DNA of 54,815 nucleotides from Kipferlia bialata (taxonomy: Eukaryota), in contig BDIP01000003.1 in assembly GCA_003568945.1 (NCBI GenBank), positions 1 to 54,815 of the forward strand, written 5' to 3'. This document shows, in pieces, positions 1,237 to 54,815 of the stretch (position 1 is the stretch's first letter; each line of letters begins with the position of its first letter). The notes under the pieces were generated by a model that searched no databases, was not told the origin of the DNA, and saw nothing but the letters and a program-made list of their open reading frames with translations. The position numbers and the translations under genes are program-made.

Positions 1237-3478
1237 ATGGGTATCTTCACGAAGCCTGGCAGCGTCTGGAAGAAGGCTCTAGACGAGGCCGGGTCTGGTG
1301 GGAGTGCAGACATTGTGAGGCGAGTGGTTGTACTCAATGACACAGGCAGTGTGCTGAGCCAGATGGTGACGGCTGCCGGGGGTAGCCTGCCAGACGAGCA
1401 GCCTAGTGCTGCGCTGCGGTATGCCAACGTGTCCACTGCAGACGGGACACTGGTACAGTTTTACGGTGTGCCCCGCTCTCTATTTGGGGAGACCGGTCCT
1501 GTCCTCTCTCTTCTGAGGACACCCATACCCACTGTTCTGGTCCCATGTGTTGATGTGGCGCCAGAATCCTTCAATGTTGCGACTGGGTCTGAGCCGGGTA
1601 AGGTTCCCTTTGTTGCTGTTGTTGAGGAGACGTGCCGGCTGCTGAGGGAGGGCGAGGGTGTGTGGAGGGCCCAGTCTAACGAGGAGGAGGAGGATGCAGA
1701 GGATGTGGCCCCTGAGGCTGAGGACGTGTCTGTCTCAGGGGATGAGAGTGTGGGTGTGGTCGACAGGTGGAGGCAGTCCCTCCTCTCTGCCCTTCAGGAG
1801 ACAGAGAGGGTTGCACTCGACACCCCAGACGCAGTGTCCCAGTTCTCTCTCTCCCCCTCATTCCCCTGTCTCCCTGTCATCATTGTGGCCACTAGGCCTG
1901 GCGATGCCTCCGACAAGGACGATGCAGCCAAGCCCACCCATGCCAAGAGGTCCTCCTTCCCCAGTGTCTCCCACTCTCTGCTCAGGGTGTTTGCCCTCAG
2001 CGTGGGAGGGGGCCTTGTTGTGCAGAGGGCGCAGGCCACTGAGAGGCTCCATGCCAGAGGTAGGCAGAGGCGTGAGAGGGGCAGGGATGCGTCTCCCTCC
2101 AGACTGTGGACAGTGGCCGAGGCCTGTCTAGGGGTGCTGGACGGGAGGAGACCCCCTGTGCAGAGGGTCAGTGAGGTGGACGCCCTGGGGGAGGAGTCTG
2201 AGATTGTACACTATGCCGGTATCCCCACTGTCCCATCCCACATCGGAGACACCTCATTCATACCACCAGGTGCAACATAAGTTGTATTATATATATATAT
2301 TTGTTTATGTGTATATGAGGGTATGGGTCAACATGTCCTCTTGTCATCCTGTTGTCGTTATGCTTTGGAGAGCTCGTATATACAATCCCCCCCCCCACTT
2401 CTGATCCACTCTCTCCTGTGGAAGTGTTGAACTCCGCCCTTCTTACCCTAGGATTCGACAGTGCTGCCCGTATTAACACCGCCATCGACGATGACGCTAG
2501 GTACACACCTCCCAAAGCCTTTGTTGTTTGGATAGACATATAATAGTCACAGGCACTTTCTGTCTGTAGTTATCCTGTATTATTGATTATTCTGACCCTC
2601 TAGGGACACCAAGAGTGTGACTGGGTTCTGGAAGGAGATGATGCCCACCCCTGAGTTTGTGTGTGACCCCTCCAGTGTGTGTGGCCTGCTGGCATCCCCC
2701 ATGTTCCCAACCAGAGTCAGACTCCTCTTCCTGGGGCATGTGTCACACATGAAGAAGATTGCAAGGTTTGTCTTGTATATAACAATTATAGTATGTATAT
2801 ATAGTATTACACAACGTATTATATATAGTATTGTGGTATAATATGGTAGTATAATATATGACATTACACTGTGTAATATATATATACATATTCTGGGCCA
2901 TGTATCCCACATGAAGAAGATTGCAAGGTTAGTCTGGCAGTGTATCTATACATTACATTATACCTTCTCTATATATAGTACTGACTGGCAGGGGCATGCC
3001 TGAGACCCTACTTGCCATCCGTATATATATATGTAGTCTCTAAGTAGTAGTGTATGAGTTATACCTCGTATTGTACTGACTAACTGGCAGGGGCATGCCC
3101 GAGACCCTCCTTGCCATCCGTATATATATGTGTGTAGTCTATAAGTAGTAGTGTATGTATTAGTTATACCTCCTATTGTACTGACTGGCAGGGGTATGCC
3201 TGAGACCCTCCTTGCCACCGACAAGGCATTCAGGAAGAAGGCAATGGGCAAGACGGCCCCTTCACAGAGGACAGAGTCCAAGGATAGGTATGAGTACATA
3301 TATGCAGTGTATTAGTCTCCATATTGCGGCTCACCCCAGGTCCAAGCTGAACCAGCTCTTCACCAAGAAGAAGGGGTCCAAGGGCCACTCCTCCTCGCAC
3401 AGCATGAGTGCATCGGGGAGGGACAAGACATACGTCAGAAGGGACCAGAGCAGAGACCCCAGCGCAGAGCACAAATAG
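1237..3478 (+). CDS. Cytoplasmic dynein light intermediate chain-like protein (5 exons)
   Basis: Motifs occur in DLIC order: SVWKKALDEA, ALRYANV, PVIIVATR, LLRVFALSVGGGLV, DTSFIPPG/FDSAARI, and C-terminal KLNQLFTKKKG. In-phase GT-AG introns start at 2270, ~2501, ~2766 and ~3288. Confidence 0.65.
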
Positions 3479-9075: not shown

Positions 9076-9226
9076 GGGTGTTCTTCAGCCACTCCATCTG
9101 TCTCGCCCTATCAGTGTGTGTATGACTCACAACCAGTCTGTGTGTATCTGTCTAAGGGTCTCACTCCTACCCCCCCTCCCCCCCATATTCCCCATGCCTC
9201 TCACCCCAGTCTATGGATGAGGCCAC

Positions 9227-9261
<35 letters not shown>

Positions 9262-9329
9262 CATACATATATATATGTATCTATATGTATATTGATGTCT
9301 CACCCCCAGCCTGTTGACGAGGCCACCCT

Positions 9330-9374
<45 letters not shown>

Positions 9375-9397
9375 GTATATACATACCCTACCCCCAG

Positions 9398-14091: not shown

Positions 14092-14135
<44 letters not shown>

Positions 14136-18212: not shown

Positions 18213-21200
18213 GGAGACATATTCATGTTAACCTAACCCTAGGGCTGACAGGCTAACGTTCTTGTCTCTATCTTTCTATGGATATGCATATATAGTAGTA
18301 ATAATAATAAGTGTCTCTCACCCTATGGCTGAGAGGCTGAGGGTCTATAACGCACTATATATATCTCTGTACACTGATATACATACTGTTTACCTAACCC
18401 TAGGGCTGAGAGGCTGAGGGTTAAGCAGGGCAGACCACACGTCATCCACTACTTCCACCAGGTACCTTGATCATTAACGAAGTATATCTATATATGCATG
18501 TGGACGCAATACCTGTCCTTCTCTAATCTACCATTATATTCACTGCCACCACAAGAATCGCATCGATCTCATTGCTAATGTCTACTTACCTCTAGGTCAA
18601 TGACCCCTACAGTGCCCTGGCAGTGCAGTGCATACCCACCATACTAGGTATCACAATTGTTAACATGCCAGAGAGTCCATTCACGTAACAGCCTCTTACC
18701 TCCAGCTAGGTATGCTATCTTTGTCGAGTGCCACCTAGTCTCTGCCATAGAGGGAGGGGACCTGCCTGAGCCAGAGCTCTTTGCCAGGCTGGCACTACAC
18801 GATGCCAAGGCCATAGGTATGAATGTGTACCTCACTTTCAAGCATATACGATATGTAGGTTGCATTGTAGACAGGAAGTGGGTATATGATGATTCTGGAC
18901 TGAACCTAGCATGGGTGAGAGACCACTATCCCTGTCAACCGCAGGTTCCCTATGTGTATAACCCTATATGTATATATATATATATGACTCTCACCTTACC
19001 CCCAGCCCCTGGCATGGGCGTGTCCTTCCCCCAGACTGCACAGACACCCACACCTGAGGCAGAGGCAGAAGCACAGCGGAGGTTGGCAGAGGTATATATG
19101 TGTGCGTATGTTTCTTTATGTGAGCATACTAATTTATATATAAGTATGTTCTTTTCCTCTCACTTCAATAGGGCATAGCGAACCCCTTCCTCTTTGCCAC
19201 ATATGTACCATATACAATATACTATATACAGTAGTATATATATATGTATATACACTATACTCCCCCTCATCATATATCATTGGCTTCCCTGTCCTCTTTG
19301 ACTTGATAACTATATAGAGGGACGTGCTTTCCTCTTACTATAGGTCATAGGCGACCCTGTCCTCTTTGCGAGATGTGCATCTGAGTGCACTGCATGGCTG
19401 TGGGATAACAGTGCCACTGTGTCTCTAGCAGAGGCAGAGACAGAAGAGGAGAGAGAGGGAGAGAGAGAGAATGCACAGTTGCTGGTTGAGGAGGGCAATG
19501 CTCTCAGACTGGACATGGGCCACTACTCCAGTGGCATGTTCTACTACGAGGGAGAGTGGTGAGTAGTTAGTATATACGTGACATTACTATTCATAGAGAT
19601 GATGAAACGTGTTGAATTCATCTATGTTGAATTGTTTTGTATGAGTACTGCGTCTCTGACCTGCAGGTACTGGGGCATCTCTGTCGAGTAAGTTATGTAT
19701 GAGTACTGCGTCTCTGACCTGCAGGTACTGGGGCGTGGACAGGATGTACCACCTGGAGCAGAGGCTCATGAAGCTAGGTAGGGACCATTATGAATACATG
19801 TGTATACATAAGTAATTGTTGATTAAGATATAATAACGGACTATAATAACACCAGACCTCGAGAGACATGAGCTGAGGCAGGAGCACCCAGTGGCCAAGA
19901 CTGAGACCAACCCATATGGCTACTCATACCCCAGACCACCCATAGTCAGGGGGAGGGTGGCACATCCAGAGGGTGAGTATCAGCTATACAGCCGTCTATA
20001 TTTGTGTGTGTTTACCGATGTCTGTATATGAGTGTGGTTGCAGGGGGTCAGAACGGTATATATATAGGAAGGAATGACTGGAGTATTCTTGTTTGGGAAT
20101 ACCCACTCCAGGTCTTACCCTTGAGATCTACCCCTCTCTTCGCAGTCCATACACTGCAGTGGGGTTCGACACAGCTGTATCCATCGCCAAGGAGGCAGGT
20201 GAGTTATGCAGTATTTCATGTACCTCATCAGAGTCTCTGATTCAGAGACATCTCTAGGATGCGGAATATTCTGTAATTGACAAGTTATGGTGCCTATGCT
20301 GATCGGTAACCAAAACTGGCACGCCCTTACTCTCAACTGCCACTTGTGACTATGCCTAACTCCCCAGGCATAGCCTATGAGGTCAGACCCGTCCTGCCAA
20401 TGGTCATGAGGGGCATGACCATATCAAGGAACAAGGGCAGGTACTGTTAGCAGAGTAATTGTGTCACATAACTACTAGACTAGTAGTATACTTGTTACAC
20501 TATCATTCACAATAGGTACATCATGCGAGACGCCAAGCGGGAGGCCGATGCACAGGGCATACCCTTTGGCAATATGTATGACCCAGTGGGGAGGCCTGTC
20601 CTGACGGCATTCTCTCTCCTGCCATGGGTGATAAAGCAGGTATTAGTCAACATATCTCAAGATATTGAATGTGTGACACTTAGTGTCTAGGAACCCTTCA
20701 AGTACATTTCTAAATATCCAGGGCAAAGAGGCTGAGTTCATATCTGCCTTCCTCTCTGCAGCCTTTCCCAAGGGCACAAACACTAGGTGAGGGTCCTGTT
20801 CCAATGTTACTGCAAAGGAAAATATACTGGAGGACTGTTTCTATCTACCTTTCACCCTCAGTTCCCTTAAGGGTCTACGCACAGTAGTTGAGGCTGCCGG
20901 TCTGGACTGGGAGGTGGCACAGACACACATCACAGACGCAGAGCTCAAGGTATGAGAACACATATATAGGAGTTGTATCCCGTGTTCTTCATTCTCTATT
21001 ACATACATCTAACTGTAAACTGTTTACTGTCTCGTCACAGGCACAGAGCTCACTGTATGTAAACATATACTCTTTTACTTCCTAAACATCATTCTGATGG
21101 TGTGTTTATGCCTCTAACTCTCCAGCGTGGCCATGCATTGCTAGCAGCCAACAGGGAGTCTATGATCAGTGACCTGGGCCTCTGGGGGGTACCCTCATTC

Positions 21201-30006: not shown

Positions 30007-30344
30007 GACAAGTAGAGTTGCAAAGGGTACAATGTCTTGGAAGGCAGGAGAGACTATAGTGATACTGTTGTATGCACTATCGATGGACTGAATAGAGTTA
30101 TCGAGAGAGGGCACGGCCTCCAGGCCCGTACTCATTTCAAATGAGTCATTTGGGTTAATAATTCAACTTCCAGAATTAACTGACATTTGCAGTATATATA
30201 CACACTGTTAACACCGCAGACGTGCCCCGAATGTCACATTTTTTTAACTACATATTTAGAGAGTGACTCTCTAAGAGATTCAATTTAGTATTGTTGAAGC
30301 ATCGAAGAAATTGAATTTGAAACTGAAAGTCCTGTGACTACAGT

Positions 30345-33300
30345 GTGTTCTACTACTACCCCATTCCACATCATCATTGTGCAAGGTTCAAAAGTCGTTC
30401 TGCGACAATCACCAATGCCAGGTATTCTCCCTATCTTCCCTGGCCTGTTCTACCTCCACCCAATTCCGCCACCGTTCTAGATTCTCTTCAGCTCTCTCTA
30501 CGCAGGTGTTGGCAAAGTAGACAATGTCCTGGGAGTGGATTGGAACGCATTTCTGACGTCAGGTGTAGCATTGGAGTCATAGTCAGGCGTACAGTCACCA
30601 ACATGCAATACAGTAGTACCTGAGTAAATACCGTCAGGTCATTACACTCCTCGGAGAGAGTATGAATCTCCCGCTCGATATTTGTCAGAAAGTCTGTCCT
30701 CGTCGTGTGGACAAAAGGATCCTGACCCAGATCGAGTAGATATTCATACAGTCTGAGCTCATTTTCGTACTTCGCTCTTGCCAAACCTAATCGGAAGCAG
30801 GTGTCCCACTCTGCGGTCAAGATTGTATGTATGAAGGGTAGTATCTTCCATAGATTAATGTGTCACACTCGGTATTGTCACCTGCAAAGAGCCATGCCCT
30901 TTTCACTATGTGCAGAATGGACGCCATGAGCAGCCTGAGAGTGACACCAGTGGGGGTAGAGGGACCTGGGTTAGAGATCCAGACAAAGAGAGAACTGGAG
31001 TTGTCTACATTCGCAGAATATCTGTAGTGACGCAGCACCTGGATCAGCTAAGGTCACTAGCGCTGAGCCAGTCCAGTCTGCTTGGGTACTGGGAACCACA
31101 CGCCTTTCCGTGTTGAAGCCTTGCTCAGACCCACACATTGTCCCAAGCATGATGTCCCGAACAAGTGACCTGAAACACGGGTAGTACTGCTTGACAGGTA
31201 ATGCCTTACAGTAAGCAATTGTAGCAGGAACCATTATGAATACCGAACATGCCTAATGATATTTGTCATTGTCATAACATACGAAACCCACCTGATCCAA
31301 TAACATGAATAGTGAACAAGCGTGCTCGGTAGCTGGGCTGATACTATGAAGCAGCGCAAGTGGGTGGTTGATTCCCCACATGGTTACTGGCGTGAGTGTA
31401 TATACCTAAGTTTTAGTTCATACTATTAGCAAGTACCTTTACTAAGTATAAGGAAATACTATTTACAAGTGTACCTTCACTCATCCGTGGTTTCTCTGCA
31501 AAGCTGAAGAATGCAGCGACTAAGAGTGCTAACGAGGATCCGGGTGTAAACCAGCCACCCTCCACTTCTTTGATATTCTTAAGAAACCGAAACAGGAGAT
31601 GTATCATAAGGGCGGTCTGCTCGATAAACACACTGGAGTCAGCTTTGTGATTCAGCCACCTTCATGACCACTAAACTGCTAAAAGGGAGTGAGTATAGTA
31701 CCTTCCAGAACTATGCACCAAAGGCTCCGCTGCCATAAGAATACGAATAATGAACACTGCTGGGGCACCCCCAGCTAGTCCTAACTGCTGGATACAACAC
31801 ATGACCAGATGAGTTAGTGGAAAGGTATCCTCTGCCAGCACCAACAGTTCGTGACATGTCTCATCATGCAGTAAAGGTAAAACAAGAGGGTCGAGTATGT
31901 CATGGGCTTTTAAGAACTTCACATGGTCCTCCGATGTTGGCACAGTTAGGTCTTGGCATTTGTATGGGAGCATCGGTTGGATGAAGCTGGTTGTCAGGTT
32001 GTGGATGTGTTTAGTTATTGTATTTGATAAGGAATGTGCGTTTGCCACCTCAACTGCCAGAATGTCCCATAGTCTTCCTCAGATGAGCCGAGATTAAGGT
32101 GGGAAGGCACCAGCTCACTGACCGATACCTGAAGCTGTGTTAGCGGTATGTCACATATCTTGAGAACTGGGTGATGAACTACAAGATCTAGTTGTGCACA
32201 TGGTGGTGTGATTCAAACATGGGAACCTTGTGTTCTGGGAACACTGCACATGCACTATGGATACTAATGTAGTGCTGAGGACCGGAGTTGCGGTAGTAGT
32301 GCAATCGTTTCACTTGTTCATCAAGCAGGAATAGCCCATTATCCAGAGCAGTAGGCTTCGAGAGGCCGTTGCCCTTTCGTGTCGATACTTTGCGAAATGA
32401 CAAGTCCTTAGTTATGGGCCAAGTGGGAGCAAAATCTAGGACATCCCTGACTTGTAAGGGCAACTCCAAATTAGATAGATGAGAAGTAATCACTGATTAC
32501 TCCCCACCTCAACTTGTCACTGGAATAGAGGGAGCCCTGTTTGCCGTTTCTGAGTGTACGACAACTTATACCAGAGTTCATGTTAGACCTGGGTGAGAAC
32601 AAGACATCCAATACACATGTGTGCTAGACAATTACTCCTAGTGGTACCTAAACCCAAAGTGATTGATTCCCCAATGGGCTCTTGGATCGAAGAAGGCCTC
32701 TTTGATGCGGTTTTCTGCCACAACGTAATGGGGAAGAGGATACTCAACACGTATCCACTGGAATGAGAATACAACCTCAACCTTTGGGAGCAATAGAGCT
32801 ATGTGAGAGCATAAGTATCCACTTCTGTTTGGCAGATTGCCGATATACTTCATTACCTCTGGGTGGTGAAGCTGGGTCTCATACACTGAGCTCATTATCA
32901 TGCTTGAACGCAAATCCTGTCATAAAGATGTTCTCTTCATGATTGTAAAGTACGACTTCATATTGAGTACCAGTTTGTACACCTTTACATTGTGATGCAT
33001 TCGCAAGGTTTCATACACGTTGACAACGTCAATAAGGGAAGCCAGCCTAAAGTAAGAAGAATGTGATGAAATCTCTCAACCACCACACAATAGTCAACCC
33101 ATTTCTTAGCACATGCCTTGCAAATGGACTTGTTGCAGTTTCGTCGACTTGCGAGTGCAAGTGTGGTACTGAAATTAGTGAGGTTTCAACGCATCGCGTA
33201 AGTATCTCACAACTTGTCGGTGTCATTCCGTACCGTGTAGCAGGGGTGCCGTCAGAGTATCCACTCTGTGTTGAATCTCGAGTGAGAACACGTGGTAGGC

Positions 33301-33594
33301 GCAAGGGTACTGGCCAAGCCAATCAGGCAAATACACTGCTAGAAAGGCAGTCAATAGTCGGAACATGTGTCGGATCTCTGGAACCAGTTGGATGCCACCG
33401 GTGACACTGACATTGGTGGCAATAAGACTCCAGGTAAATCTTCCACCCTTTCCGGGCTCTGTACCCAAGAAATAGATAGATAGTAGATAGGGGGAAGTTT
33501 GTATATTCAGAACACCCACCATACAAACATCCCCGGGAGACTTTGAGGGTCGCGCCAGAGACCTCGAACCATCGATTTGCACCACACTGTCCAT
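30345..33594 (-). CDS. Hypothetical multi-exon gene or genes
   Basis: Chain of coding-like minus-strand ORF blocks with GT-AG boundaries. No family recognised; exact structure and gene number unresolved. Confidence 0.35.
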
Positions 33595-33846
33595 ATACGG
33601 CGCAAGTGGGGAGTAAGCTTTCTGCTGATAAGACTATATCCTACACGAAATTGACGATCGCAGAACTGAAAATGATGGAACCCTTACCTATCAGAATATG
33701 ACATAGTCATCTGTAGCCGGTGATACTTGGCGTTGGCACCGTCCAATGCTGAGTGGTATGGGAAGTATACATAGTCGGATGCAGCCGAACTAAGGGTGAG
33801 CAACACAACACGGAACAGCTAAAGGCATATGTTACGAAATGTGCCT

Positions 33847-34814
33847 TTACAGTGTAGAATACCGAACTCCGGTTGATATATGCGAGATGTATACAATTAG
33901 TAGCTCAAACACATACTTCATGAGCATTGCCAGCGGATAGCTAGCCGTGGCAGACTGTATCTGGTAAAGAACCAGCAAAGCCACTATGATAGTCGAGGCA
34001 TGGACAGCAGTCGATGCCAGTGCAGATATTAGCACAATGGGTGTAGTGGCAAGAATTATATGCATCATGTGGGCCAGCTCGTCATGGAGAGGGCAAAGCT
34101 GGTGTCAGGCTATTAGTACGTATTGATTTGTGTGATGTTCACTCACTATAGCATCCCCACCCGTTTGAGCTCTCTAAATAGCTCATCGTGTCGTCGCTTG
34201 TAGGACACATCAAAGGCTCGAGAGGCAGCGTGAGTCATTGGTATTGACACAAGGGCTGTGAGCCAGAGAGAAAGTCTCGCTGGGATGCATGTGTCAGTGA
34301 ATAGCACGGAACACACCTTGGGGGTCAATAATGAACAGTGATTGTGCGAGTGCAGATACACAACGGTGATCATAACAATTAGAGCCATTCTAACTCTACC
34401 TGTCCAATAATAGTGACCCAGTATAGCATGTAGCTCAGAGCCTTTGCTCTATCCATATAGCATGACCCTCCAATGACGGTCAGAGTGTTGCGAAAGAAGG
34501 CCAGTACCGCCATGTTAGTTATTCTGGCTCTGATGTCAGAAAGCGGTGTTGATCCTGTCGTCCACAGTGTGGAACTTATGAACTCCACACATATGTTACC
34601 TTCCGACTATACCGTGACCAGCAATGGCCAAAGTAATTGCAGAGAACACTACGTAGCGGCAGATTCCTATCCTGTTCATTAGGACATGGGTCCCTGTGCC
34701 CGCCCTGGGGCACACGTACTCAGACATCGACGCTGTGGTCGGGTGCCCAGTCATCTTACACCCTTGCGCAACTGATTTGCCAGTCGCTTCTAGAAGAGTA
34801 AGTGTTTTGACCAA
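33847..34814 (-). CDS. Hypothetical multi-pass membrane protein
   Basis: Four colinear ORF blocks with hydrophobic segments (YVVFSAITLAIAG, LSYMLYWVTIIG, LSLWLTALVSIP, IVLISALAS..IIVALLVLY). Confidence 0.4.
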
Positions 34815-35299
34815 ATGGTGTTTGTATAGTTCTTCCGGTACACTTGTACATGCAGTGTACTATAGTACCTGGAACCAGCGAGGTACAAGCTGTTACTGGT
34901 GTGGATACGGCAACCCTCGCAAGGAGTGATGTGGGAAGATATCCTCAACTACTGTAGAGAGCCTACATTTGCAATATGTGGCTAGTCGTTGGTTGCATCC
35001 ATCGTTGTAAACCCTACAGTTCGCTAACAACCCGCATGAAGGTTGCATATGGGTACACATTGCACCATGTCCACCTCTCTGTCTCTCTTTGATACATGAT
35101 CACATACGATTGCGTGACAAGCAAAGAACTCTAACGACTCTACGGCTAGCCACTGCGTACACTCTAAGTGGTCAATGCCAGGGGGGTTCTTTCCATCCAG
35201 TGTTCATCAATGGAGGTCTGAAACCATATATATATACCACTCTTATACTAGACCTAGTATTACTTTGATCGGCTGTTTAGGAATTTGTCTATCTAATCT

Positions 35300-36763
35300 G
35301 TCAGACATCAACAGAGGACAGAGCGCTTAATCTTCAGCACAGTGGCGAAACTCAAATTCAGTGGACAGAAACTGTCACTTGCTAGGTGATTGTGATTGTG
35401 ATTGTTACTGTGGTGTTGACTGTAGACTTACTCCTATCACAGTTGTTGTCATTTTCACTACACACATTACAGAGATCGAAAGTTGCAAGCCTTCGAGATA
35501 GGTAGTCAACCTACTCATCCACCAGGGACAATATGTGGTTTGCGTTACTGCCCAAAATATTCATATTGGTCATGAGGGGGTTTGTTGAGATCAATATTAC
35601 GTCCGAATCAAGGTAAGGACGAGATATGCGGACACATCTCTATACTTGGAAACATTATAACAAGACAATCAAGCGGTCCTGTTATCAAGCACCGTATTGG
35701 TATCTTCTTACCCTCAGGTTACTTGGGTGGACGTTGATAATGTTAGATGTGGTCGCAGGTATGGGGATTTGAGTGTATGTAATTGTTGCATATCTTGGCA
35801 CCAGTAATTGATTCTGTGATATGGAGCAGTATGTATTCTTAGAGACACGTCAGACACTCATCCATGCGTGGTTCGTCTATTGTGTTCACTATATATACTG
35901 ATGCAAGGTACGCTAGTCTATAAATTGGTAGGTGTCTCATATCTGAATTTCCCTGTGTAGCTGTCTTACCCACAGGCACGACCACATCCTTTATGGCAGC
36001 TCTGTACTTGGCTGCTGGTGCAATTGAGGCTAGGTACCCTTAAGATTAGCTTCCGACACCCTGAACATGAATTCATGTCCACTATTAGTAATCACTAATC
36101 CACTACCTCTCCGCTGATACACAGTCGAGCAGAGAAGGGTACTGCGTTCTTGTTCCGTCAAAGACGCATGGTTAATGTCGGCCTCATCCAGTTACTTCCC
36201 CACACCATTGAAGTCCTGACACTGGGTTACATAAGTGGGTGCTATTGCACTACCTAGGATTTAACTAATCCCCTACCAAATGTATACATATATTACTTCT
36301 GACAGCATAGCTATTGAGCTACAACAACTCTAGTCTACCCTGCTACATCTTCCTTTATCAATTGTCACTTAACGCAGGTATTCTGTTGGCAGTATTCATA
36401 GGGGACCTCATCAGAGTTTGGGACTTCTACATTGCATTGCCGTTGCTACTAGGTAACAATACAATGTGTACAGTTGGGACTGTATACGCGTCATATACTG
36501 TGGGTCTCTCAAACTGCTACATCTGCATCTCTATTCTCATCACTCACTCACAATCTAACCTCTCTCCTGATTTCAAGCTATTGAGACGCTGGCGCTGCTA
36601 CTTGGGGTGTCGACAGCCGTCTTTGGAATATTCGGTAGGACTTGTTACCCGCTATGTGGAAGACGTTCATGAAGTGGTCGAGAGTATCCATACAGTTAAT
36701 ATTCAAGTGAAAGTTAATATCACTATGTTGTATGATACAAGTTGTATCCTATTTTACCTATAG
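35300..36763 (+). CDS. Possible multi-exon hydrophobic protein
   Basis: Short exons with typical splice sites (MWFALLPKIFILVMRG, LLGWTLIMLDVVA, TTSFMAALYLAAG, GILLAVFIGDLIRVWDFYIALPLLL). Boundaries uncertain. Confidence 0.3.
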
Positions 36764-42375: not shown

Positions 42376-42717
42376 TCAGTCCTCCCTCTCCCACTCTCCC
42401 CCCCTCTGGCCATACACAGCGCGGTTCAAGTTGCATATGTGCCTTGCCAGGACCCCGGTATTGGCATCAACGGTCTCCAAGCGGGTGATCACCTCCTGGT
42501 GTTGCTGCTTCAAGCGGGTGATCACCTCCTGGTGCTGCTGCTCCATCCGCTGCTCCATTCGGTGCACCATATCGTCATTCATGGACCTGATGGCTGTGAG
42601 GAGAGTCTCGAACTTCGAGTCGAAACGCAGTTCAAGTGCTTTTTGCCCCTGCAGAATGTCACTTACATTCTGAGTGTAAGTCTCGACAGCAGTGGTGGTC
42701 TTGGTTGTGGAAGACAT
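42376..42717 (-). CDS. Intronless coiled-coil hypothetical protein with internal 33-nt duplication
   Basis: MSSTTKTTTAVETY...RMEQRMEQQHQEVITRLKQQHQEVITRLETVD... Confidence 0.55.
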   Translation of the reverse strand: MSSTTKTTTAVETYTQNVSDILQGQKALELRFDSKFETLLTAIRSMNDDMVHRMEQRMEQQHQEVITRLKQQHQEVITRLETVDANTGVLARHICNLNRAVYGQRGGEWERED

Positions 42718-42869
42718 GGGCAGTAGAAGACAATAGTCACTCAAGAAGGGCCGTTTAGATAATCGGAGAATTTCCGTCCGATTATCCAAACGTCTCTCCG
42801 AAACTAAGCTGAGGTGGCTCACGCTTCATATCATTTCTGTAGTACAGACTGTACTACAGACTGTCCCCG

Positions 42870-43904: not shown

Positions 43905-44640
43905 TGTGTACACCCAGTGGGACATCTGGACAGTGAGGGATATGTTACAGAGAGAGAGAGAGAGAGAGAGAGTGGGCCAAGAAGACGTACCGTGGGGAAC
44001 CTCACGAACTTGGACTCGATTCCAAGCCACTGGGCTGTCTGGAAGGCAGAGATGCCGTGCCTGGGGTCAGAAATCCACATCTGAAACCACGTATAGACAT
44101 ATATGCGTACATCTGTTATATACATATACCGTACCACTGGTGGATGCGGTAGTAGCCACTGTGGATAGGAGATGTATATAATTATACATTGCCATATTCA
44201 TGTATATATATACTATACTGTATATTAATATATACTACAATACAAATACCGTACCACTGGTGGATGCGGTAGTCGTGGCCACCGTGGATGACAAGGATGG
44301 GGGTGACCCAGTCACCTGGGGTAAGAAATGGGATATAGTAATAACCCTACTAGAATGCTAGAATATATATATACATATTCTACGTATACATTAATAGTGG
44401 ATCACAAGGATGGGGGTGACCCAGTTACCTGGGGTGAATCCATATACACTATTAATAGTATACACATAACACCCAGGGTAAGTGACTAAGGATAGTCATA
44501 TTAGTTACACTATTATATATATATATAAATTATGTATTAGATATATAGTACACAGTACCGTACCGGCGTGCTGGGCAGGGGACCAGGGCAGGATCTTGTT
44601 GTCTCTGATCTGGGGGTCCAGGACAGAGCCGCCGAACTCC
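43765..44640 (-). CDS. S9C peptidase (dipeptidyl-peptidase 5 / alanyl dipeptidyl peptidase-like) C-terminal fragment, 4 exons
   Basis: EFGG...WSPAQHAGDWVTPILVIHGGHDYRI (catalytic Asp)...GISAFQTAQWLGIESKFVRFPTMSHWV (catalytic His)...WHEQVIGWLNNYLQ*. The nucleophile GxSxGG exon is absent. Confidence 0.8.
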
Positions 44641-44671
44641 CTAGAATAAGACAAAGAAGAGAGAGAGAGAT

Positions 44672-44725
<54 letters not shown>

Positions 44726-44862
44726 TGACATGCCTGTTCCAGGTGCGAAAGAAATATATGTATATATATATAGAGAGAGAGAGAGAGATACACTCATACC
44801 TGTTCCAGGTGGTGCGAAAGAGAGAAAGAAATATATATATATATATATATATATACTCATAC

Positions 44863-45379
44863 CTGTTCCAGGTGGTGCGACCTGAGCCACGGTGGTAGAA
44901 GAATGGCTGGGGGTAAGAATTAGGGCTGCACACAGAGAGACACAGAGAGAGAGGTGGTAAAAGAATGACTGAAGATGAGGTATTAATGGTACATACAGAG
45001 ATATAGAGAGAGACAGGTGGTAGAAGAATGGCTGGGGGTAAGAGAGTAAGGATGTAGCAGACAGACAGAGAGAGAGAGAGAGAGCAAGGTGGCAGTGGAA
45101 GAAACACTTTGCGTGTACAAGGAGAGAGAGAGACAGAGAGAGAGGGTGACTGAGAGAGAGAGTGTGTGCACTAGTCGTCGTACCGTCTGAGTCTCTGAGT
45201 CTTTGAGCTCGGCACAAGTATATTTGTATTACACTTCAAATACATATATATATGTATACAGAGCCCGGCATAATATGTCTTGTACTTCATACGTATATAT
45301 CTGTACTCAGAGAGAGAGAGAGAGTCGTACCTTTTGAGTCTTTGAATCCACAGCCCGCTTCCATCCTGATAGTGAGACA

Positions 45380-45417
<38 letters not shown>

Positions 45418-46015
45418 CCGAGTGCTGGAGGCAGCGCGGTGATCAGCAACAGTCTCATTCATTTTCCCCTCCTCGTCTACTACTATATAGAATACATGCT
45501 CTTAACTCATAAAGACAACACGTCAGGAGCACTATCATGACCTTACTCACTACTGTGTCTTAGGATAAGTTAGTGTGTTTACACTCACCCTTAGGAAGCG
45601 GGGTCAGATCACTTATAGGGGGAACCAGGGGCATGTTGTTAGACATGTCCCACACACCCTATAGGATAACACTGATCCAAGGGGTGGGTTAGAAGGAGAG
45701 AGAGTAGCAGAGCAAGGCCACCGACCAGTCCTGACTATTCCAAACATTGCTTCCAAATAGGTTGAAAATGATACTACCCAAATGGGCTTTGAGCGTTTGA
45801 ACGGACCCAGTCTTAGAGATGTGGGTCTTCCCTTCTGGCCTAGAATACAAGAGATATGGGCCCCTCCAGCCTACGGACTCATGCCGTGTCACCCCTGGTG
45901 CAGAAGATACTGATAGTGACATACATCACTACGGTGGGTGGGAAGTTAATCTACATGTATTCAGTAGTTACCTTCAATGACTTCTCTCTGTCAGCCAGCT
46001 CTAAAGTGTCTGGTT
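44863..46015 (-). CDS. WW-domain-containing protein fragment
   Basis: Exons 45589-45658, 45331-45365 and 44863-44906 splice in phase to LTPLPKGWKRAVDSKTQKPFFYHRGSGRTTWNR, a canonical WW pattern. Confidence 0.75.
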
Positions 46016-46184
46016 ACTGCCTTATATCTAGGCATATATATCGTTGTGCATGTGAGTAGGTGGGGATGAGTTTACCACTAACCCCCCCCCCCCTCCCCCC
46101 TCCCTTTGTCAGTCCTAATACCTATTCAATCTTTACTGTGCTCTCTTTCTCTCCCTGCTCTTCCCCCCTCTCCTTCTAACCCAG

Positions 46185-47044
46185 GGCATCATCCAGCCAC
46201 TTCTGATGGACGAGATCAAGATATTCGGTATGTTAATCAATGTCGGGAGGAGTTTGTATTGTATTTGACCCTCACATCTCTTATCCACCTCCCTGTATTC
46301 CCAACTCCACCTTTTACTATACATACTGGCCTACTATAATATATACTCACATACCTACTCTTATATATTCTCATACCCTGGTGATTGTGTGTCTCCAGCG
46401 TCCTCTCTCCACGTACATTCTCTCTCTCTCTCTCTACCCCCCCCATTCTGTTATGTTTCTCTCTACCTACTCAAAGGCACTGCCTCAAAGCGGGATATCT
46501 ATACGGCCTATTCCTCCCTCTATACTCTCTCCCTTACTCATTGGTGCCGCCTCTCAGTGGTCCTTCCTGATTTCTCTCTCTGCTTTCTCTCTCCCCTCCC
46601 TTACTCGTAAGGGGTCTTTCTTCTACTCTCTCTCTCTCTCTCTCTATCTCTTCCTTACATCAAGGCGCTGCCTCTCAGTGGTCCTTCCTGTACTCTCTGC
46701 CCCATGCCATTGGAATGGCATTCATGCTGCTTAGGCCAATTAAGGACAAGGTATATACTATATGTACGCTATACATATAGACATGTATACACACATATAT
46801 ATATGTGTATTGGAATGACATTCATGCTACTGAGGCCTATCAAGGACAATGTATACCTTTTGACTCTAGTGTACGTCTTAGTCTCTATCTACTACCCTGC
46901 AGTCCTCTGACAACTCTATCCCTCTCTCTATCTCCCTCTCTCTCCCCCCCCTCTCTCTCTCTATATATATAATTACATATATGTATGTTTATTCAGCCCA
47001 GTCCTTCAACCTCTCTCTGGGATGACCTTAGAGACCATCTCTCG

Positions 47045-47077
<33 letters not shown>

Positions 47078-48446
47078 CACATATATGTATGTATACTCAC
47101 CCCAGTCCTTCAACACGTCTCTCTGGGATGACCTCAAGGAGTTCAAGTGGCCAATTCTACTAGGTAAATACCTGTATATATATATGTATTCTATACATTC
47201 ACTGTGCATGGTATCTGTGTGTTCTCTCTTTTCCTTTGGGATGACCTTATTGTGTACTGCACCATTGTCATATATATATATATAGTATATATGACCTTAT
47301 TGTGTACTTGTTACTCTCTCTAGTATATGTATGAGAGTCTCACCCCAGTCTCCCTGGTCGATGTCTTTGCCAGCACCGTTGTCATTGTCATTGTCATACA
47401 TACTATCTTACATACAATATGTATCTTAAACTCTTTCTACATGAATACATTTGTCTATCTTACTCCCAGTATCTCTTGTCGATGTCTTTGCCAGTACCAT
47501 TGTCATATTCGGACAGCTCATGGTAAGGAGTGTACTCTCTCTCTCTCTCTTTCTTTCTCTCTCTCTCTCTCTCTCTATCTCTCTTACTCTCTCTTTCTCA
47601 CTCTTCCTGTCCACCGTCTCTATGAGAGTATCCTCTTCTAATAGTATCACTATAGTTGTGAATAGCCAGTACCATTGTCATATTCGGACAGCTCATGGTA
47701 TGTAGTGTACTCTCTCTCTCTCTCTTTCTTTCTCTCTCTCTCTCTCTCTCTCTCACTCTCTGTCTATCTTTCTCTCTCTATCTCTCTATCTCTCTTTCTC
47801 ACTTCCTGTCCACCGTCACTTTGATAGTCTCCTCCTATTATAGCATCACTGTATGTGTGTATATTGGTACGCTATGTACTCAATGCAGGTTGGCTCTGCC
47901 ATGTACACCATCATATACTCTCTCTCTCTCTCTCTCTATGTATCAATATATAAAATACCACTCTATATAACCCCAGGTTGGCTCTGCCATGTACACCATC
48001 ATATACTCCCTCTCTCTCTCTCTCTCTATGTATCAATATATATATATACCACTCTATATAACCACAGGTTGGCTCTGCCATGTATACCATCATATACTCC
48101 TCGGTGCCTGTCTGGGCGGCCATTGGATCAAGAGTCCTGGTGGGGAGGAAACTAACCCAGCGTATGTACATGTATACATATATATATATATATGGATATG
48201 GATATAGTATATTATTCGTCGGTCCCTGTCTGGGCTGCCATTGGGTCAAGGGTCCTGGTGGGGAGGAAGCTTACTCAACGTGAGTGTATCTAGTGTATAC
48301 CATGCATACATATGTATATATATGTATGGAGACAGTTTGGTGCCTGTCTGGGCTGCCATTGGCTCTACTAACACAGCGTGAGTGATTCCATATATATCAT
48401 GTTAATGTATATATATATATACATATACCTAACCCCTGAGCAGTGG

Positions 48447-48496
<50 letters not shown>

Positions 48497-51400
48497 ATGC
48501 ATATATATGTATACCTCCTAATATCTAGAGCAGTGGCTGTACATTGGCACTGTGGTGGCAGGTCTGGGCATCAGTGGGGCAGGGGCTCTCAATGAGCCAG
48601 GTACAATAATTACATCTATTAGTGTATGTATTGATAATACTGTTATATATATTCATAGTATAGTACAATAATTGCCTAGTAGGCATCAGTGGCGCAGGGG
48701 CACTCAACGAGCCAGGTATATATATATATATAGATGTATGTATATGTATGAATCTAATATAGTATATACAATCAATAATAGTAAGAGGACATATATCACC
48801 TATAGCACATGTAGTATCAGTGGCGCAGGGCACTCAATGAACCATGTATTCACTCATCTATGTGTATCTATAGTATATGTAACAGTAATGTATATATATA
48901 GTGTAGTATCAATTTGCCAGGTACATGTATATATATATAATTGCGTGCTTACCCATTCTGTATGGCAGGTGGAGATATACCATAAAGTATACGGAGGCTA
49001 TTTATGTACATGGAATCACATTTACTCTTATGTCCAATAGACGTATGCTTACTCCTTCTCTCTCTTATCATAGGCGACAGGATTGCCACTCTTATGCATG
49101 CTTTGTATCTCGCCTCTCTCTCTCTCTCTATATATATATATATCTCAAACCAGGTGACAGGATGCTGGCCGGCTGCGTTGTGACTCTGATAGGCACCATA
49201 CTGCACTCGGGGATATACTTCATAGCAGAGGCTGTGTTGAGGTATCTATACATAATTATATCATTGTATACAATTATATCGTATCTGTAATACTGTATAT
49301 ATCTGTAATATTCTCTTGAATTCTTAGTGTCCCTGTAACACTCAGGCGACCCGACCAGCGCCCTCTCCACCCTCAACGCTACTGTGGCCTAGTTGGTATG
49401 GCTCTCTCTCTCTCTCTCTCTGAGAGAGAGAGTCTCTCTCTGTCTCTCTCAATCTCTCTTCATTACCGTATATCCGTAGGTATATATATAATCGGAATAG
49501 TACTTACTCCAAGGTCTCTTCGATGTCCTGTCTCTCTCTCTCTCTCTCCATGAATCAAGCTCTATCTTTCCATTGGCAGCCAATATATGACCCCAGGCCT
49601 GTTCGATGTGCTGTGGCTCAGCCTGTATGTCCTCATATACACAGTGCCCAGGTGGCAGGTGAGGATGGTGTACCAATATATAGTATATGTAGTATATATA
49701 CTACAATTTTTATCATATATCATGTACCCATCAGCCTGTATGTCCTCACATACACAGTGGCCAGGTGACAGTTAGGATACTATTTATTGAGACCATTATA
49801 TACTTTCATATAGTGATATATAATATAACTTGCGTGGGTGTCCACTAATCACTAGGAGCTAGTCACCGACCCCATCACTGAGGCAGACTTAGAGACACTA
49901 AATGTATATATATATATATAAGTACTAGTCACCTTGAATTATCACCCTATAGCTCTCTAATGCCTAGGAGCTAGTCACCGACCCCATCACCGAGGCATCC
50001 CTATCATACATATTGCTCTATGTATATATATATATGTATATATGTGTACATCTGTCTCTTACTGCTAGGAGCTAGTGACTGACCCCATCACCGAGGCTGG
50101 CAGTCACTACACGGCCATCTGGTTGCTGTACCTGATGCTGACTGTGGATGACTCAGGTGTATTCTATAGACATATATATATATAAAGGTATATATATAGA
50201 CAGATATATGGTTTGATATAGATACATGGCCATCTGATTGCTGTACCTGATCCTGACTGTCGATGACTCAGGTAGTGCTATACATATGTATGTGTATACC
50301 TATACCTATATAGGCATATATAGGTATATATACATGGTCATCTGGATGCTGTACCTGATGCTGACTGTCGATGACTCAGGTAATTGCATGTATATATATA
50401 GAGAGAGGGATATATAGTATAGATACGGGCCAGTCTCATGCTTCGACCATAGATTCAGAGCGATAATCATATAATATTTTCCCAATTGTTTTTATTAATC
50501 ATTATTGTAATCATATAATATTCTTCTTATATTAGTGTGTATGCCCTCCCCCTCGCCATATGTATATATCCTTACATCGGCGTACCCTCTCTCTTTCTAA
50601 ACCATGTTGGTGTTCTCTCTCCCTCTCCCTCTTTATAGTGTGTTCCTCTAATGCCAGTCCACTCTGGCTCCTTCTACCCCATGCTGGGTGTTCTTTGTCT
50701 CATTCTCTCTCTCCCTCTCTCTCTATATATGTGTGTGTATACCTCATATCAGTCCACTCTGGCTCCTTCTACCCCATGCTGGGTGTGGTTGGGTCAGTCT
50801 CCATGGCAGTGTTCAAGACAGTGGCTAGTGGTACGTATTACTCTATATACTATATATATATATATATATGAATATATATATAGAGAGAGAGAGAGACTGG
50901 TCCATGGCAGTGTTCAAGACAGTGGCTAGTGGTACGTATTACTATATGTAATCATATATTAATTGATATATAGAGTCGGAGAGAAGAGGTGTATTGTGGT
51001 TGGGTCAGTCTCCATGGCGGTGTTCAAGACAGTGGCATCAGGTATACACATGGATATTTATATATAAATAGTATATATAGTATATATTGAGTCAGAGAGA
51101 AGATATATATTGTGGTTGGGTCAGTCTCCATGGCAGTGTTCAAGACAGTCGCATCAGGTATACACCCACATATATACACATATATTCAATATATGTGTGT
51201 GTGTGTGAGAGAGAGAGAGCGAGAGAGAGCGAGAGAGATTGGTCTATGGCAGTGTTCAAGACAGTGGCATCAGGTGAGTATATATATGTAATAATATATA
51301 TGGAGAGAGAGGGAGAGGGAGAGAGAGAGAGAGATGTCCATGGTAGTGTCTGTTCAATACAGTCGCATCAGGTATGTTTCAATACAGGTGTGCGTGTCCC

Positions 51401-52809
51401 TCTGTGTGTTTACGGATATCCTTAAACAGTGTAGGTACTGATACTGACACTGACACTGATAACAGGTTTCTCCCACTTATTCCCTAACATCAGTCGGTGT
51501 GTTCCTGGGCTCTGCTCTCTTCCTCTCTCTCTCTCTCTCTCTCCATATATATACATATACATATACATATATATATATATACACATGTCATACTGACATC
51601 AGTCGGTGTATTTCTGGGTTCTGCTCTGTTCTTCTGCAGCATAGACCAGACAATATCTCTCTCTCTCTCTCTCGCTAACCCTAGTCGGTGTCTTCCTTGG
51701 TTCTGCCCTATTCTTCTGCAGCATAGACCAGACTGAGTGTCTGACTGGGTACAAGATAGCCTCCCTGGTGGTGGTGATTATAGGGGTGGTAGGTACATAA
51801 GCACTGAATATTTACGTATTCAGTATGTATTGTATATGGATAAAAGGTTGCGTCACTGGTGGTGGTGATTGTAGGGGTGGTTGGTACGTAGTCGCTGATA
51901 CGAATATTCATAATATGAATTTACACATCATGTATTATTATTGTCAATATACATTTTCTGTATAGCCTAATCCCAGGCTACTACTCTGTAGTAGATAAAA
52001 TTATTGTAAATACATATACATTGTATATATATGTGTGTGTATGTATACATCTGACCCTCAGGCTACTCTGTCAAGACCGACTCCAGCAGTATATAGATAA
52101 TTATATATTAATATGAGTATTATATGTATTAATAATGTAGGACTTTTCTCTTATAGGCTAACCCTCAGGCTACTCTGTCAAGACCGACTCCATCCACAGA
52201 CTGGCCACACAGGCAGCACTGGCTAGAACAGGTATGATAGATATATGGTATACAATATATATATACACATATATATAGCGTATATAGTGTATATGTGTGT
52301 CCACATCCACCGACTGGCCACACAGGCAGCACTGGCTAGAACAGGTATGATAGATATATAGTATACAATATATATATACACATATATATAGCGTATATAG
52401 TGTATATGTGTGTCTACATCCACCGACTGGCCACACAGGCAGCACTGGCTAGGACAGGTTAGGGGTATTATTGTATCAGTGTATTTACTTGTATTCAAGA
52501 TCTATAATTAGTATTGTGGAGGTATCACGGCTCTCACTTCAGAAGGTGTCTCTGAGCTTGTGAGTGTGAGGGAGAGACACTCCCATTTATGCAACTATAT
52601 ATATGTATATATATGTCATATCAATTTGGTATTCTCTATACATGTTATTGTGTTTGTCTCACCTTCAGAAGATGTCTCTGAGCTTATTATGTATTGCTTA
52701 TCTAGTCATCTCACCTTCAGAGGATGTATCTGAGCTTGTGAGTGTGAGGGAGAGACACTCTCTGCTAGAGGGCGAGGCAACAGAGAGTGAGGAGTGTGAG
52801 GAACTGTAG
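46185..52809 (+). CDS. Drug/metabolite-transporter superfamily (EamA / nucleotide-sugar-transporter-like) membrane protein, 14 or more exons, 5' end not seen
   Basis: Spliced: GIIQPLLMD..VSLVDVFASTIVIFGQLMVGSAMYTIIYSSVPVWAAIGSRVLVGRKLTQQQWLYIGTVVAGLGIS..GCVVTLIGTILHSGIYFIAE..GSVSMAVFKTVASVGVFLGSALFFC..KIASLVVVIIGVVGYS..EECEEL*. Confidence 0.8.
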
Positions 52810-53404: not shown

Positions 53405-53875
53405 TTTCTGACTGAGGTTTTTCATATTGGGTGTGAAAAGGGTGTAGAGTGAGCTGATGTCAGTTGACACTCGAGCCCAGTCTCTCTCCACCACTGGGTG
53501 ATGGGAGTGGATGCGTTGTTCTGCGTGAGGGACCTAACCTGATATATAACCTGACTAATACATGTTCAGTGACTATTAGTATTTTTTGACTTGGTGGTGA
53601 AAGGGTTTAGAGCTCTATTCACTCATTTGACACGCCTATGGACGGTCTCTCTCTCCACCACTGGGTGATGGGAGTGGATGCGTTGTTCTGTGTGAGACCT
53701 AACCTGATAAATACCTGACTAATAGTCACTGACTATTCTTGTATTTTTTGACTTGATGGAGAAAGGGTTTGAGCTCTACTTCTCACTTTGACAGTGTCAA
53801 TGACACCCATGGACGGTCTCTCTTTTCATCTCCACTGGGTGATGGGAGTGGATGCGTTGTTCTGTGTGAGGGACA
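53405..53875 (+). repeat. Three diverged tandem copies of a ~170-bp unit covering upstream region and start of exon 1
   Basis: ccactgggtgatgggagtggatgcgttgttctg occurs at ~53491, ~53657 and ~53832, each preceded by gaaagggt..gag-like sequence. Confidence 0.85.
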
Positions 53876-54815
53876 TACCCAGCACGGGGGACAGGTGTGT
53901 GGCTGCATGTACATGGGTGTCTCGGTAATCGGAGTGAGATTTCGTAACTGTTGTGTGTATATGTACATATACTAACAATAGGGTCTTCCTCAGCACTGGT
54001 AACTGGGCTGCACTGTGGAAGGCACAGCTGCTCTCTGCCACGACCCTGACCAACCTGCATCCTGCTCTGCACCCTGTACTGAAGGAGTGCACAGTAGTAG
54101 TATGTCCAGGTATGTACTCTACCACTATACTATGCCCCACATCTAGTATATATATGTAGCATATACATACACTATATACGCATGTGTATATGTACTGCAC
54201 CCTGTACTGAAGGAGTGCACAGTAGTAGTATGTCCAGGTATGTGTACTATTCTATAGTATATATATGTAGCTTATACATACACTATATACGCATGTGTAT
54301 ATGCACTGCACCCTGTACTGAAGGAGTGCACAGTGGTAGTATGTCCAGGTACAAAGTGTGTATGTATATATATATATATATAGTGTATTTATAGTGTATA
54401 TATAGTGCATATACTATGCCCCACATTGCACCCTGTACCCTGGGACGTAGCTCTCTCTTTCTCTCTATCTCTCCATATTTATCAGAGGCAGTGTATTTAT
54501 GGTAGCCCTTGGCCTCAGCGCATGTATCGACGACATTTCATATTTTGCCTTTTTTTCTCTCTCTCTCCCCCCCCTCTCTCTCTCCCTGTATATAGATTTG
54601 TATACCTATATATACATCAGTATATGTGCTCTAACCCTAGGTCTTAGGGCCCGTATACATAGCATGCCGAGGGAGAGGATACTCTCTCTCTCTCTCAATA
54701 TATATAATCCTATATATGTATGCTAACCCTAGGTCTTAGGGCCCGTATCCATGCTATGCCGAGAGAGAGGATAGCTGCATCATTCAGAGCACTGGCTGGG
54801 ATGTGCAGAAGGCTG
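53809..54815 (+). CDS. Hypothetical protein, 5' part (runs off the window)
   Basis: MDGLSFHLHWVMGVDALFCVRDIPSTGD|RVFLSTGNWAALWKAQLL...ECTVVVCP|GLRARIHAMPRERIAASF..., in phase. Confidence 0.55.

Follow-up and report, generated by a model that had tools for sequence, protein, structure and literature searches.

How a gene comes to carry, inside its introns, partial copies of the exons on either side is the question raised by KIPB_000052, a gene of the DMT transporter superfamily in the fornicate protist Kipferlia bialata. The gene lies in the window analyzed here, a stretch of 54,815 nt of contig BDIP01000003.1, and all results come from this window, in one assembly, and from its sequence alone. 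Copies consisting of a splice acceptor and the start of an exon stand upstream of the complete exon, and copies consisting of an exon end and its donor stand downstream of it. These copies would represent tandem duplications of about 108 bases, each crossing one splice site, that arose mostly by repair copying from a second, diverged version of the gene. The assignment of the gene product (P0005) to its superfamily accompanies weak Pfam matches, EamA at E 7.7e-6 and TPT at E 1.7e-5, both under the curated cut-off.

Gene models comprised 91 exons in 10 gene blocks. Those of the transporter gene and of block K47 are exact mappings of annotated proteins, and those of the remaining blocks were built by hand from open frames and GT/AG borders, with block B left out. 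The hand-built exons of block E1 agree well with annotated proteins, 17 of 19 being found whole in P0008 and all 19 fitting an exact parse of P0012. Every exon was aligned to both of its flanking introns in both orientations with a cut-off score of at least 26, a value attained by 1% of 3,972 pairings of an exon with a foreign intron. Statistics use the 68 of 76 copies with scores of at least 30, and ragged junction ends were trimmed before replacement and silent differences per site (pN and pS) were counted.

The scan of the 91 exons yielded 41 start copies upstream and 35 end copies downstream, with none reversed and no whole exon copied. The polarity asserted in an earlier sequence-only reading is thus borne out in the window by self-alignment of exons against their flanks, for all 76 copies. 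At least one of the 41 start copies is spurious, that at 50341 being really a copy of exon 11, and 12 matches internal to exons are mostly close to the noise level. In the transporter gene, 11 of 15 exons (3-7 and 10-15) have at least one copy at a score of at least 30, making the earlier description of nearly every exon as copied a mild overstatement. Nine of its 14 acceptors and nine of its 14 donors (18 of 28 exon ends) are copied, and the copy units account for 3,043 of its 5,844 intron bases (52%). The peptides by which the copies had been recognized are present: ELVTDPITEA at 49856 and 49968, before the live 50069; VGSAMYTIIYS at 47889 and 47977, before the live 48068; and MAVFKTVAS at 50904, 51014, 51130, and 51246, all 3' of live exon 12, where a fifth end copy at 51337 is decayed (score 27). 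Copies of AIWLLYLMLTVDDS do follow exon 11, at 50223 and 50331, but are not exact, with a stop in place of W and I in place of M in one, and V in place of A and M in place of L in the other. The spacers between copies are TA/CT-rich, as had been claimed, and the extension to five other genes also stands (blocks A, E1/E2, F, H, and J, with H on the minus strand).

Whether this layout exists in the genome, rather than in the assembly only, has to be settled alongside its origin. The window is apparently part of the K. bialata assembly that, in the available text of the genome paper, was built with SPAdes from paired-end Illumina reads at ~150x; that text also gives the k-mer profile as diploid, counts 124,912 introns, and makes no mention of such copies (PMC5874029). 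Pieces of two divergent haplotypes or strains, stitched in tandem by the assembler, would likewise yield silent differences and unlike introns, and the short-read SPAdes assembly of a diploid, the presence of the E1 region on a second contig, and the ending of exact repeats at 54 nt are all compatible with such an artefact. The usual final k of SPAdes is 55. Every 55-mer in the window is unique, and exact repeats reach 54 nt at most, so that the copies lie on an unbranched path with no graph loop at this k. Further, no junction contains an N, the window has a single gap, and the copies exhibit stops, decay, and an age gradient. The five end copies of exon 12 comprise at least four versions, more than two haplotypes would give, and lancelet structures of the same kind survived re-sequencing, as reported in the available part of the source (PMC3902484). 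Stitching is therefore quite improbable, and the observed layout is, with high probability, real.

The polarity had been taken as the sign of one-sided strand invasion, and on this point the earlier argument fails. Any tandem duplication crossing one site yields the same polarity, because a duplication across one acceptor leaves the complete exon last and a duplication across one donor leaves it first; polarity is thus uninformative about mechanism. The lack of reversed copies does indicate that the duplications are tandem, and it excludes dispersed local insertion. The 68 copies are distributed over 47 exon ends, 30 of which have one copy, 14 two, 2 three, and 1 four. Units measure 63-178 nt with a median of 108, and spacers 33-142 nt, approximately the ordinary intron length here; introns with copies have a median length of 353 nt (n = 33) versus 97 nt for those without (n = 48). 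As exons are 50-100 nt long and introns near 80 nt, a duplication of 108 nt would nearly always cross a splice site. An age gradient is evident in that the nearest copy is closer in sequence to the live exon than the farthest is in 11 series, with the reverse in 1 and a tie in 5. The exon portion left outside the copy is at least 15 nt at 46 of 47 ends, a shorter one being found at 1 of 47 versus 12.8 expected. A microsatellite tract borders 38 of the 68 junctions (those of 24 of 36 start copies and of 14 of 32 end copies, including 3 with GA), and overlaps of ~3 nt at junctions were judged by eye in a few cases. Strand-symmetric CT/GA tailing is not general, CT being found after 12 of 36 start copies and GA before no more than 3 of 32 end copies. 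The idea that one insertion cut an old exon into a start copy and an end copy that complement each other is unsupported in the 12 exons considered, and start and end copies of the same exon show no significant co-occurrence (p 0.13-0.30).

Contrary to the claim that the process had not been described, this layout is known from amphioxus, where "mirages" of 5' and 3' boundaries are, in the available text, minisatellite-like tandem duplications of the borders between introns and exons with units of 10-160 bp and a mechanism called unclear (PMC3087553). A mirage of the classical kind would be a unit from the same chromosome, generated at microsatellites by slippage, flap formation, or unequal sister exchange, after which short tracts of gene conversion between alleles would overwrite only the live exon and the TA/CT-rich intron parts would turn over fast. 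Such a route explains the polarity, the unit sizes, the age gradient, and the location of breakpoints beside CT/TA tracts, as well as the five of 68 units that are clean and the 20 exonic cores that are identical to the live exon.

A copy dead from birth would accumulate changes at every position, against silent ones only in the live exon, so that the silent share would be no higher than 0.37-0.43 and pN/pS no lower than about 0.5. Compared with their live exons, the 68 copies have a pS of 0.178, a pN of 0.026, and a pN/pS of 0.148, and for the copies of the transporter gene alone these values are 0.237, 0.017, and 0.072. When only the nearest copy at each exon end is counted, 48 of 71 differences are silent and 23 are replacements (p 2.5e-5 against 0.43); the silent share ranges from 0.54 to 0.81 in a bootstrap over exon ends, and none of 4,800 simulated sets of dead copies attains the share observed. 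The excess is found for start copies and end copies separately and persists when the three richest ends are removed (32 silent versus 21 replacement, p 0.008). Amino acid differences in the transporter gene copies number 19, four of which are the residue of paralogue P0007. Neither of two other candidate processes was retained: GC-biased conversion leaves no clear bias in the counts (59 changes from GC in the live exon to AT in the copy, 45 in reverse), and a defect in flap processing, known as the phenotype of yeast rad27, would not produce a silent bias, Fen1 models being listed for K. bialata. The counts reject a dead copy of the same chromosome, the simplest mechanism.

The intron halves of the units tell a related story. 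Median identity is 0.93 in the exon part and 0.63 in the intron part, compared with 0.58 for unrelated spacers, and the intron part reaches 80% identity in only five of 68 units. Among 30 copies with exon identity of at least 0.95, the intron part is no better than unrelated in 16, and for the outermost units flank homology rises above the null 95th percentile in only 5 of 25 and 5 of 22 cases. Silent sites and introns look old while replacement sites look young, the simplest reading being two versions of the gene that both worked for most of the time after their split; copy and exon are likely derived from two such long-diverged versions, judging from these patterns of divergence. Without its conversion step the classical mirage fails the silent-site comparison, and it requires a second assumption for the 16 of 30 near-perfect exon parts that are joined to unalignable intron parts. 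Even then, it still calls for diverged alleles, none of which were found. We consider this same-chromosome route, including the rapid turnover of intron parts that it adds, rather unlikely but a serious competitor.

Two additional routes to silent-biased differences have to be weighed. Copies might remain faithful to the protein through use, either because contraction or conversion makes a copy live or because copies are spliced in by way of a shared AG/GT. Several copies keep their peptides exactly, 61 of 68 keep AG or GT (AG in 31 of 36 start copies, GT in 30 of 32 end copies), and two can be spliced in with the protein unchanged. Set against this, AGGT occurs in only 7 of 68 duplicated stretches, two cores contain in-frame stops, and exchange frequent enough for selection to act would also erase silent differences, so that continued use is an improbable source of the pattern. 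Alternatively, whole exons might have been duplicated, both used as alternative exons, allowed to diverge silently, and later reduced by deletion of half. This would yield silent-biased differences without a second allele, yet it predicts complete copies and reversed remnants, and with zero of each among 76 matches it is highly improbable.

Exon 12 provides the most detailed view of a single array. The nearest of its end copies matches the live exon, and the outer four share a different coding of Ala-Ser that includes a switch of serine codon family. In the same stretch (50831-51335), the spacer 5' of the nearest copy begins like the next spacer and ends with the GA tract and the break point of copies four and five, forming a mosaic unit. 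Arrays with different histories would be expected to produce such units when they exchange sequence. Clean repeats of whole units, such as those of the exon 14 region (52191-52459, 97% identical), are likely to be secondary amplification of the classical mirage type.

The explanation toward which these observations incline us, with moderate confidence, is that the copies would arise when recombination repair takes as its template a diverged allele or a close paralogue, homologous only in the exon, with alternative end joining as the closing step. A broken end would pair within a small exon because there, and probably nowhere else, the two versions are still alike. Synthesis would then proceed through the splice site and some 50-100 bases into the unlike intron of the template, and, with the second end unmatched, the strand would be rejoined by microhomology through PolQ-type alternative end joining. 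The outcome would be one exon end present twice, one from each version, in an intron lengthened by about one unit. Existing copies could then mispair in the ordinary way to give further, fully homologous units. Duplications that take in an entire exon or an entire intron would presumably be removed because they alter the protein, and duplications across one site would survive through choice of the complete exon by the spliceosome. The minimum length of exon outside the copies is consistent with a pairing arm. The earlier proposal of a break copied into the template's intron and joined nonhomologously is partly supported, on grounds other than the polarity on which it had been based: the silent excess, the weak conservation of the intron parts, and the minimum length of the exon arm fit a diverged homologue as template, with homology at one end and none at the other. 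The piece stranded in the intron may be the old half-exon, as then supposed, or the newly arrived copy.

The repair genes listed for K. bialata are compatible with such a scheme. According to the available portion of a comparative study, metamonads are without classical nonhomologous end joining (NHEJ), and fornicates have lost Rad51A and use Dmc1 paralogues; for K. bialata itself that portion lists no Ku70 and no Rad51A-D, along with four Dmc1, five Rad52, three Fen1, and one PolQ models, which leaves Dmc1 as the sole recombinase on the list (PMC8516963). Because NHEJ is listed as absent, the join would be by alternative end joining. Residues of the Dmc1 type are described as stabilizing mismatched base triplets and as aiding repair in yeast from templates at least 20% diverged (PMC6719624, available part).

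Several results weigh against repair from a diverged template or limit its reach. Foremost, the donor is hypothetical (allelic diversity in the population, past outcrossing, or lost paralogues), since none was found. Among the predicted proteins there is no diverged allele, the 90% cluster of P0005 having one member; its nearest relatives are paralogues 76-77% identical in protein sequence, too low for donors; the second copy of the E1 protein, identical over 397 residues, supplies no diverged donor; and two metagenome scans recovered no related locus. The silent excess is also uneven. Outside the transporter gene there are 18 silent versus 13 replacement differences (p 0.066), E1 alone gives a weak 12 versus 6 (p 0.037), and block F goes in the opposite direction with 2 versus 8. 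Many events are evidently plain duplications of the same version, as the cores of 20 of 68 copies are identical to the live exon and the intron parts of 24 of 68 exceed the null 95th percentile, where 3.4 would be expected. The minimum exon arm can equally reflect selection against near-complete copies. The ends of start and end copies of one exon do lie close together, at a mean gap of 9.6 nt (p 0.002 when compared with shuffling of absolute lengths), and their complementarity does not go beyond scaling with exon length (p 0.38). Finally, the evidence comes from a single window read as sequence.

How the splicing machinery copes with these copies is a separate issue. When sites are scored with weight matrices built from copy-free ones (59 donors, 58 acceptors), the best decoy equals or exceeds its live counterpart at 14 of the 22 donors compared and at 13 of the 25 acceptors, which rules out weakness of the decoys as the general rule by which they are skipped. 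P0005 aligns to its paralogues without insertions and the annotated proteins fit the complete exons, so that the spliceosome likely selects the complete exon; the selection itself would operate through cross-exon definition or prior removal of the inner donor-acceptor pair. The K. bialata spliceosome is reduced, with 87 of 174 proteins found (PMC6679479). Two duplicated stretches in E1, 13926-14015 and 14768-14877, contain AG/GT such that an extra intron is possible with the protein unchanged, as alternative exact parses show. They are candidates for nascent introns of the kind treated in the intron-gain review PMC3443670.

Comparison with known systems, as far as the available parts of the cited papers go, places the copies closest to mirages. 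In amphioxus these occur in Adh3, the globins BflGb6 and BflGb9, troponin C, and PGBD5 (PMC3087553, PMC3902484). Units of BflGb6 are 81-100% identical and leave splicing undisturbed by reverse transcription PCR (PMC3087553), and imperfect mirages of 60 and 108 bp were confirmed by re-sequencing (PMC3902484). Both systems have tandem copies of 5' and 3' boundaries, many with AG/GT, and in the globin and PGBD5 cases the units are 60-160 nt long and apparently ignored by splicing. Kipferlia differs in its host, a fornicate protist, in the density of copies within one gene and the predominance of single-copy ends (30 of 47), in intron parts that are mostly unconserved, and in a silent excess past the ceiling for dead copies. 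Likeness over the whole unit, which characterizes mirages, is found only in a minority such as 52191-52459.

Other processes share individual features with the Kipferlia copies. The intron-gain model of Rogers (PMC3443670) also involves short intragenic tandem duplication, but of purely exonic AGGT segments that make introns, whereas every unit here includes an existing splice site and lengthens an intron. Vertebrate duplications attributed to synthesis-dependent strand annealing are short (mean 162 bp) and local, lie where breaks were repaired, show microhomology or filler, in some cases contain splice sites, and have a homologue suggested as template; they are also rare and, with tandem cases left out of the set, dispersed at a mean distance of 1.2 kb, in contrast to the strictly tandem, polarized, and dense copies of Kipferlia (PMC2671141). 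In hypervariable Schizophyllum commune, exchange between divergent genotypes is confined to exons, much like the pairing proposed for Kipferlia, but there it takes the form of reciprocal crossovers rather than duplications, and the hyperdiversity established for that fungus is hypothetical here (PMC4209137). In "jaculum" trypanosomatids and Oikopleura, loss of Ku has been linked to many insertions via alternative end joining and recombination, in proteins rather than inside introns (PMC6635534). Tandem duplication of mutually exclusive exons entails a complete copy with both splice sites, seen in none of the 76. Literature searches, made without the term "mirage," found no such structure in Kipferlia and no origin from a diverged template; as far as these searches reach, the density, the host, and the signature of a diverged template appear to be new.

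Coordinates of the transporter gene, its exon copies, and the other copy-bearing blocks in the window
Feature	Position	Strand	Remarks
KIPB_000052, DMT-superfamily transporter	45856..52809	+	P0005 (369 aa) maps exactly to 15 exons
Exons 1-5	45856-45933, 46185-46227, 46665-46750, 47106-47163, 47470-47522	+	
Exons 6-10	48068-48161, 48529-48600, 49154-49241, 49346-49395, 49597-49658	+	
Exons 11-15	50069-50156, 50753-50830, 51685-51792, 52169-52231, 52721-52809	+	
Exon 3 start copy	46544..46577	+	acceptor decayed to TG
Exon 3 end copy	46809..46850	+	with GT; 4 silent, 2 replacement differences
Exon 4 start copy	47002..47028	+	with AG
Exon 5 start copy	47349..47385	+	V for live I, matching paralogue P0007
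Exon 5 end copy	47665..47697	+	identical; intron head well conserved; young clean tandem duplication
Exon 6 start copies (2)	47889-47920, 47977-48009	+	both lead into CT tract
Exon 6 end copy	48213..48279	+	10 differences in 67 nt, 10/10 silent
Exon 6 second end copy	48339-48377	+	internal deletion
Exon 7 end copies (2)	48682-48715, 48816-48845	+	
Exon 10 end copy	49731..49771	+	decayed: 3 replacement changes including stop; donor lost
Exon 11 start copies (2)	49856-49884, 49968-49996	+	differences all silent
Exon 11 end copies (2)	50223-50271, 50331-50379	+	
Exon 12 start copy	50658..50691	+	34/34 nt identical
Exon 12 end copies (5)	50901, 50995, 51111, 51243, 51337 (range 50901..51371)	+	last one decayed
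Exon 13 start copies (2)	51494-51526, 51603-51651	+	nearer one: 5/5 differences silent
Exon 13 end copy	51837..51883	+	two I to V differences, both as in paralogue P0007
Exon 14 start copy	52062..52085	+	
Exon 14 end copies (2)	52304..52457	+	113-nt units
Exon 15 start copies	52543-52582, weaker one at 52669 (range 52543..52685)	+	
Block A	2893..3116	+	1 end copy, 2 start copies; distinct differences 6/6 silent
Blocks E1/E2, Q/P-rich protein, part of KIPB_000045	9209..16591	+	27 copies
Block F	18327..19300	+	3 start copies; mostly replacement differences (old, decayed)
Block H	43909..45031	-	5 copies; polarity unchanged on minus strand
Block J	54195..54681	+	truncated by window end; 2 end copies, 1 start copy

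Not all genes of the window are affected. Blocks K47, D, and Gm have no copies at a score of at least 30. In K47, which is KIPB_000047 (23200-30006), the 18 introns are ordinary, the exons are large, with a median of 255 nt as against 57-78 nt in copy-rich genes, and TA tracts occur at 1.3 per kb versus about 6. In intron 9 of the transporter gene, at 49401-49445, a CT tract runs straight into a GA tract and back and could fold on itself. The E1 protein (9679-15018) is annotated again, as P0008, on a contig of 13,836 nt, with 397 of 397 residues identical and a read-through, directly ahead of the gap, into the same intron; this second copy is either a collapsed duplicate or a redundant assembly path. 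The only N gap in the window (15051-15993) falls inside the most copy-rich gene, where younger copies may be collapsed or missing, and the exons past it (16348-16907) probably continue the Q/P-rich protein. P0012 (741 aa, "dynein heavy chain," 7841-15018) resembles a fusion of a short dynein-like start with this unrelated Q/P-rich protein; Pfam gives nothing for three P0012 exons, and no homologue was recovered when the dynein-like exon served as query. Gene A has no match in Pfam or the PDB. Elsewhere, three tandem units of ~170 nt, 82% alike, lie in intergenic DNA at 53481-53874, off any known coding exon boundary; a 33-nt tandem repeat (42470-42540) lies within a small minus-strand open frame resembling a coiled coil (42376-42825); and 30100-35400 is ~5 kb of ordinary-complexity DNA with short open frames only and without TA/CT-rich introns.

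In its boldest form, the idea of repair from a second version of the gene holds that Kipferlia, free of Rad51 and NHEJ, routinely repairs from strongly diverged alleles for which exons of 50-100 bases are the only landing sites, stranding half-exons as it does so. We advance this tentatively, as doubtful rather than improbable. If true, introns would be stacked records of earlier alleles that one genome suffices to read; the introns of affected genes would more than double in length by this route; and AGGT-bearing units would seed new introns, contributing to the 125,000 introns of an organism whose relatives are nearly intron-free. The same route could underlie the unexplained mirages of highly polymorphic marine animals. 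Mirages were earlier known from a few amphioxus genes, and the copies in Kipferlia are dense enough for mechanisms to be tested by counts. The youngest of them may break short-read assembly and gene prediction in K. bialata. The organism also offers a natural test of how a reduced spliceosome skips decoys that, at about half of the affected ends, score like real sites, and, if the reading with two templates holds, the loss of repair genes in fornicates would be linked to the growth of their introns.

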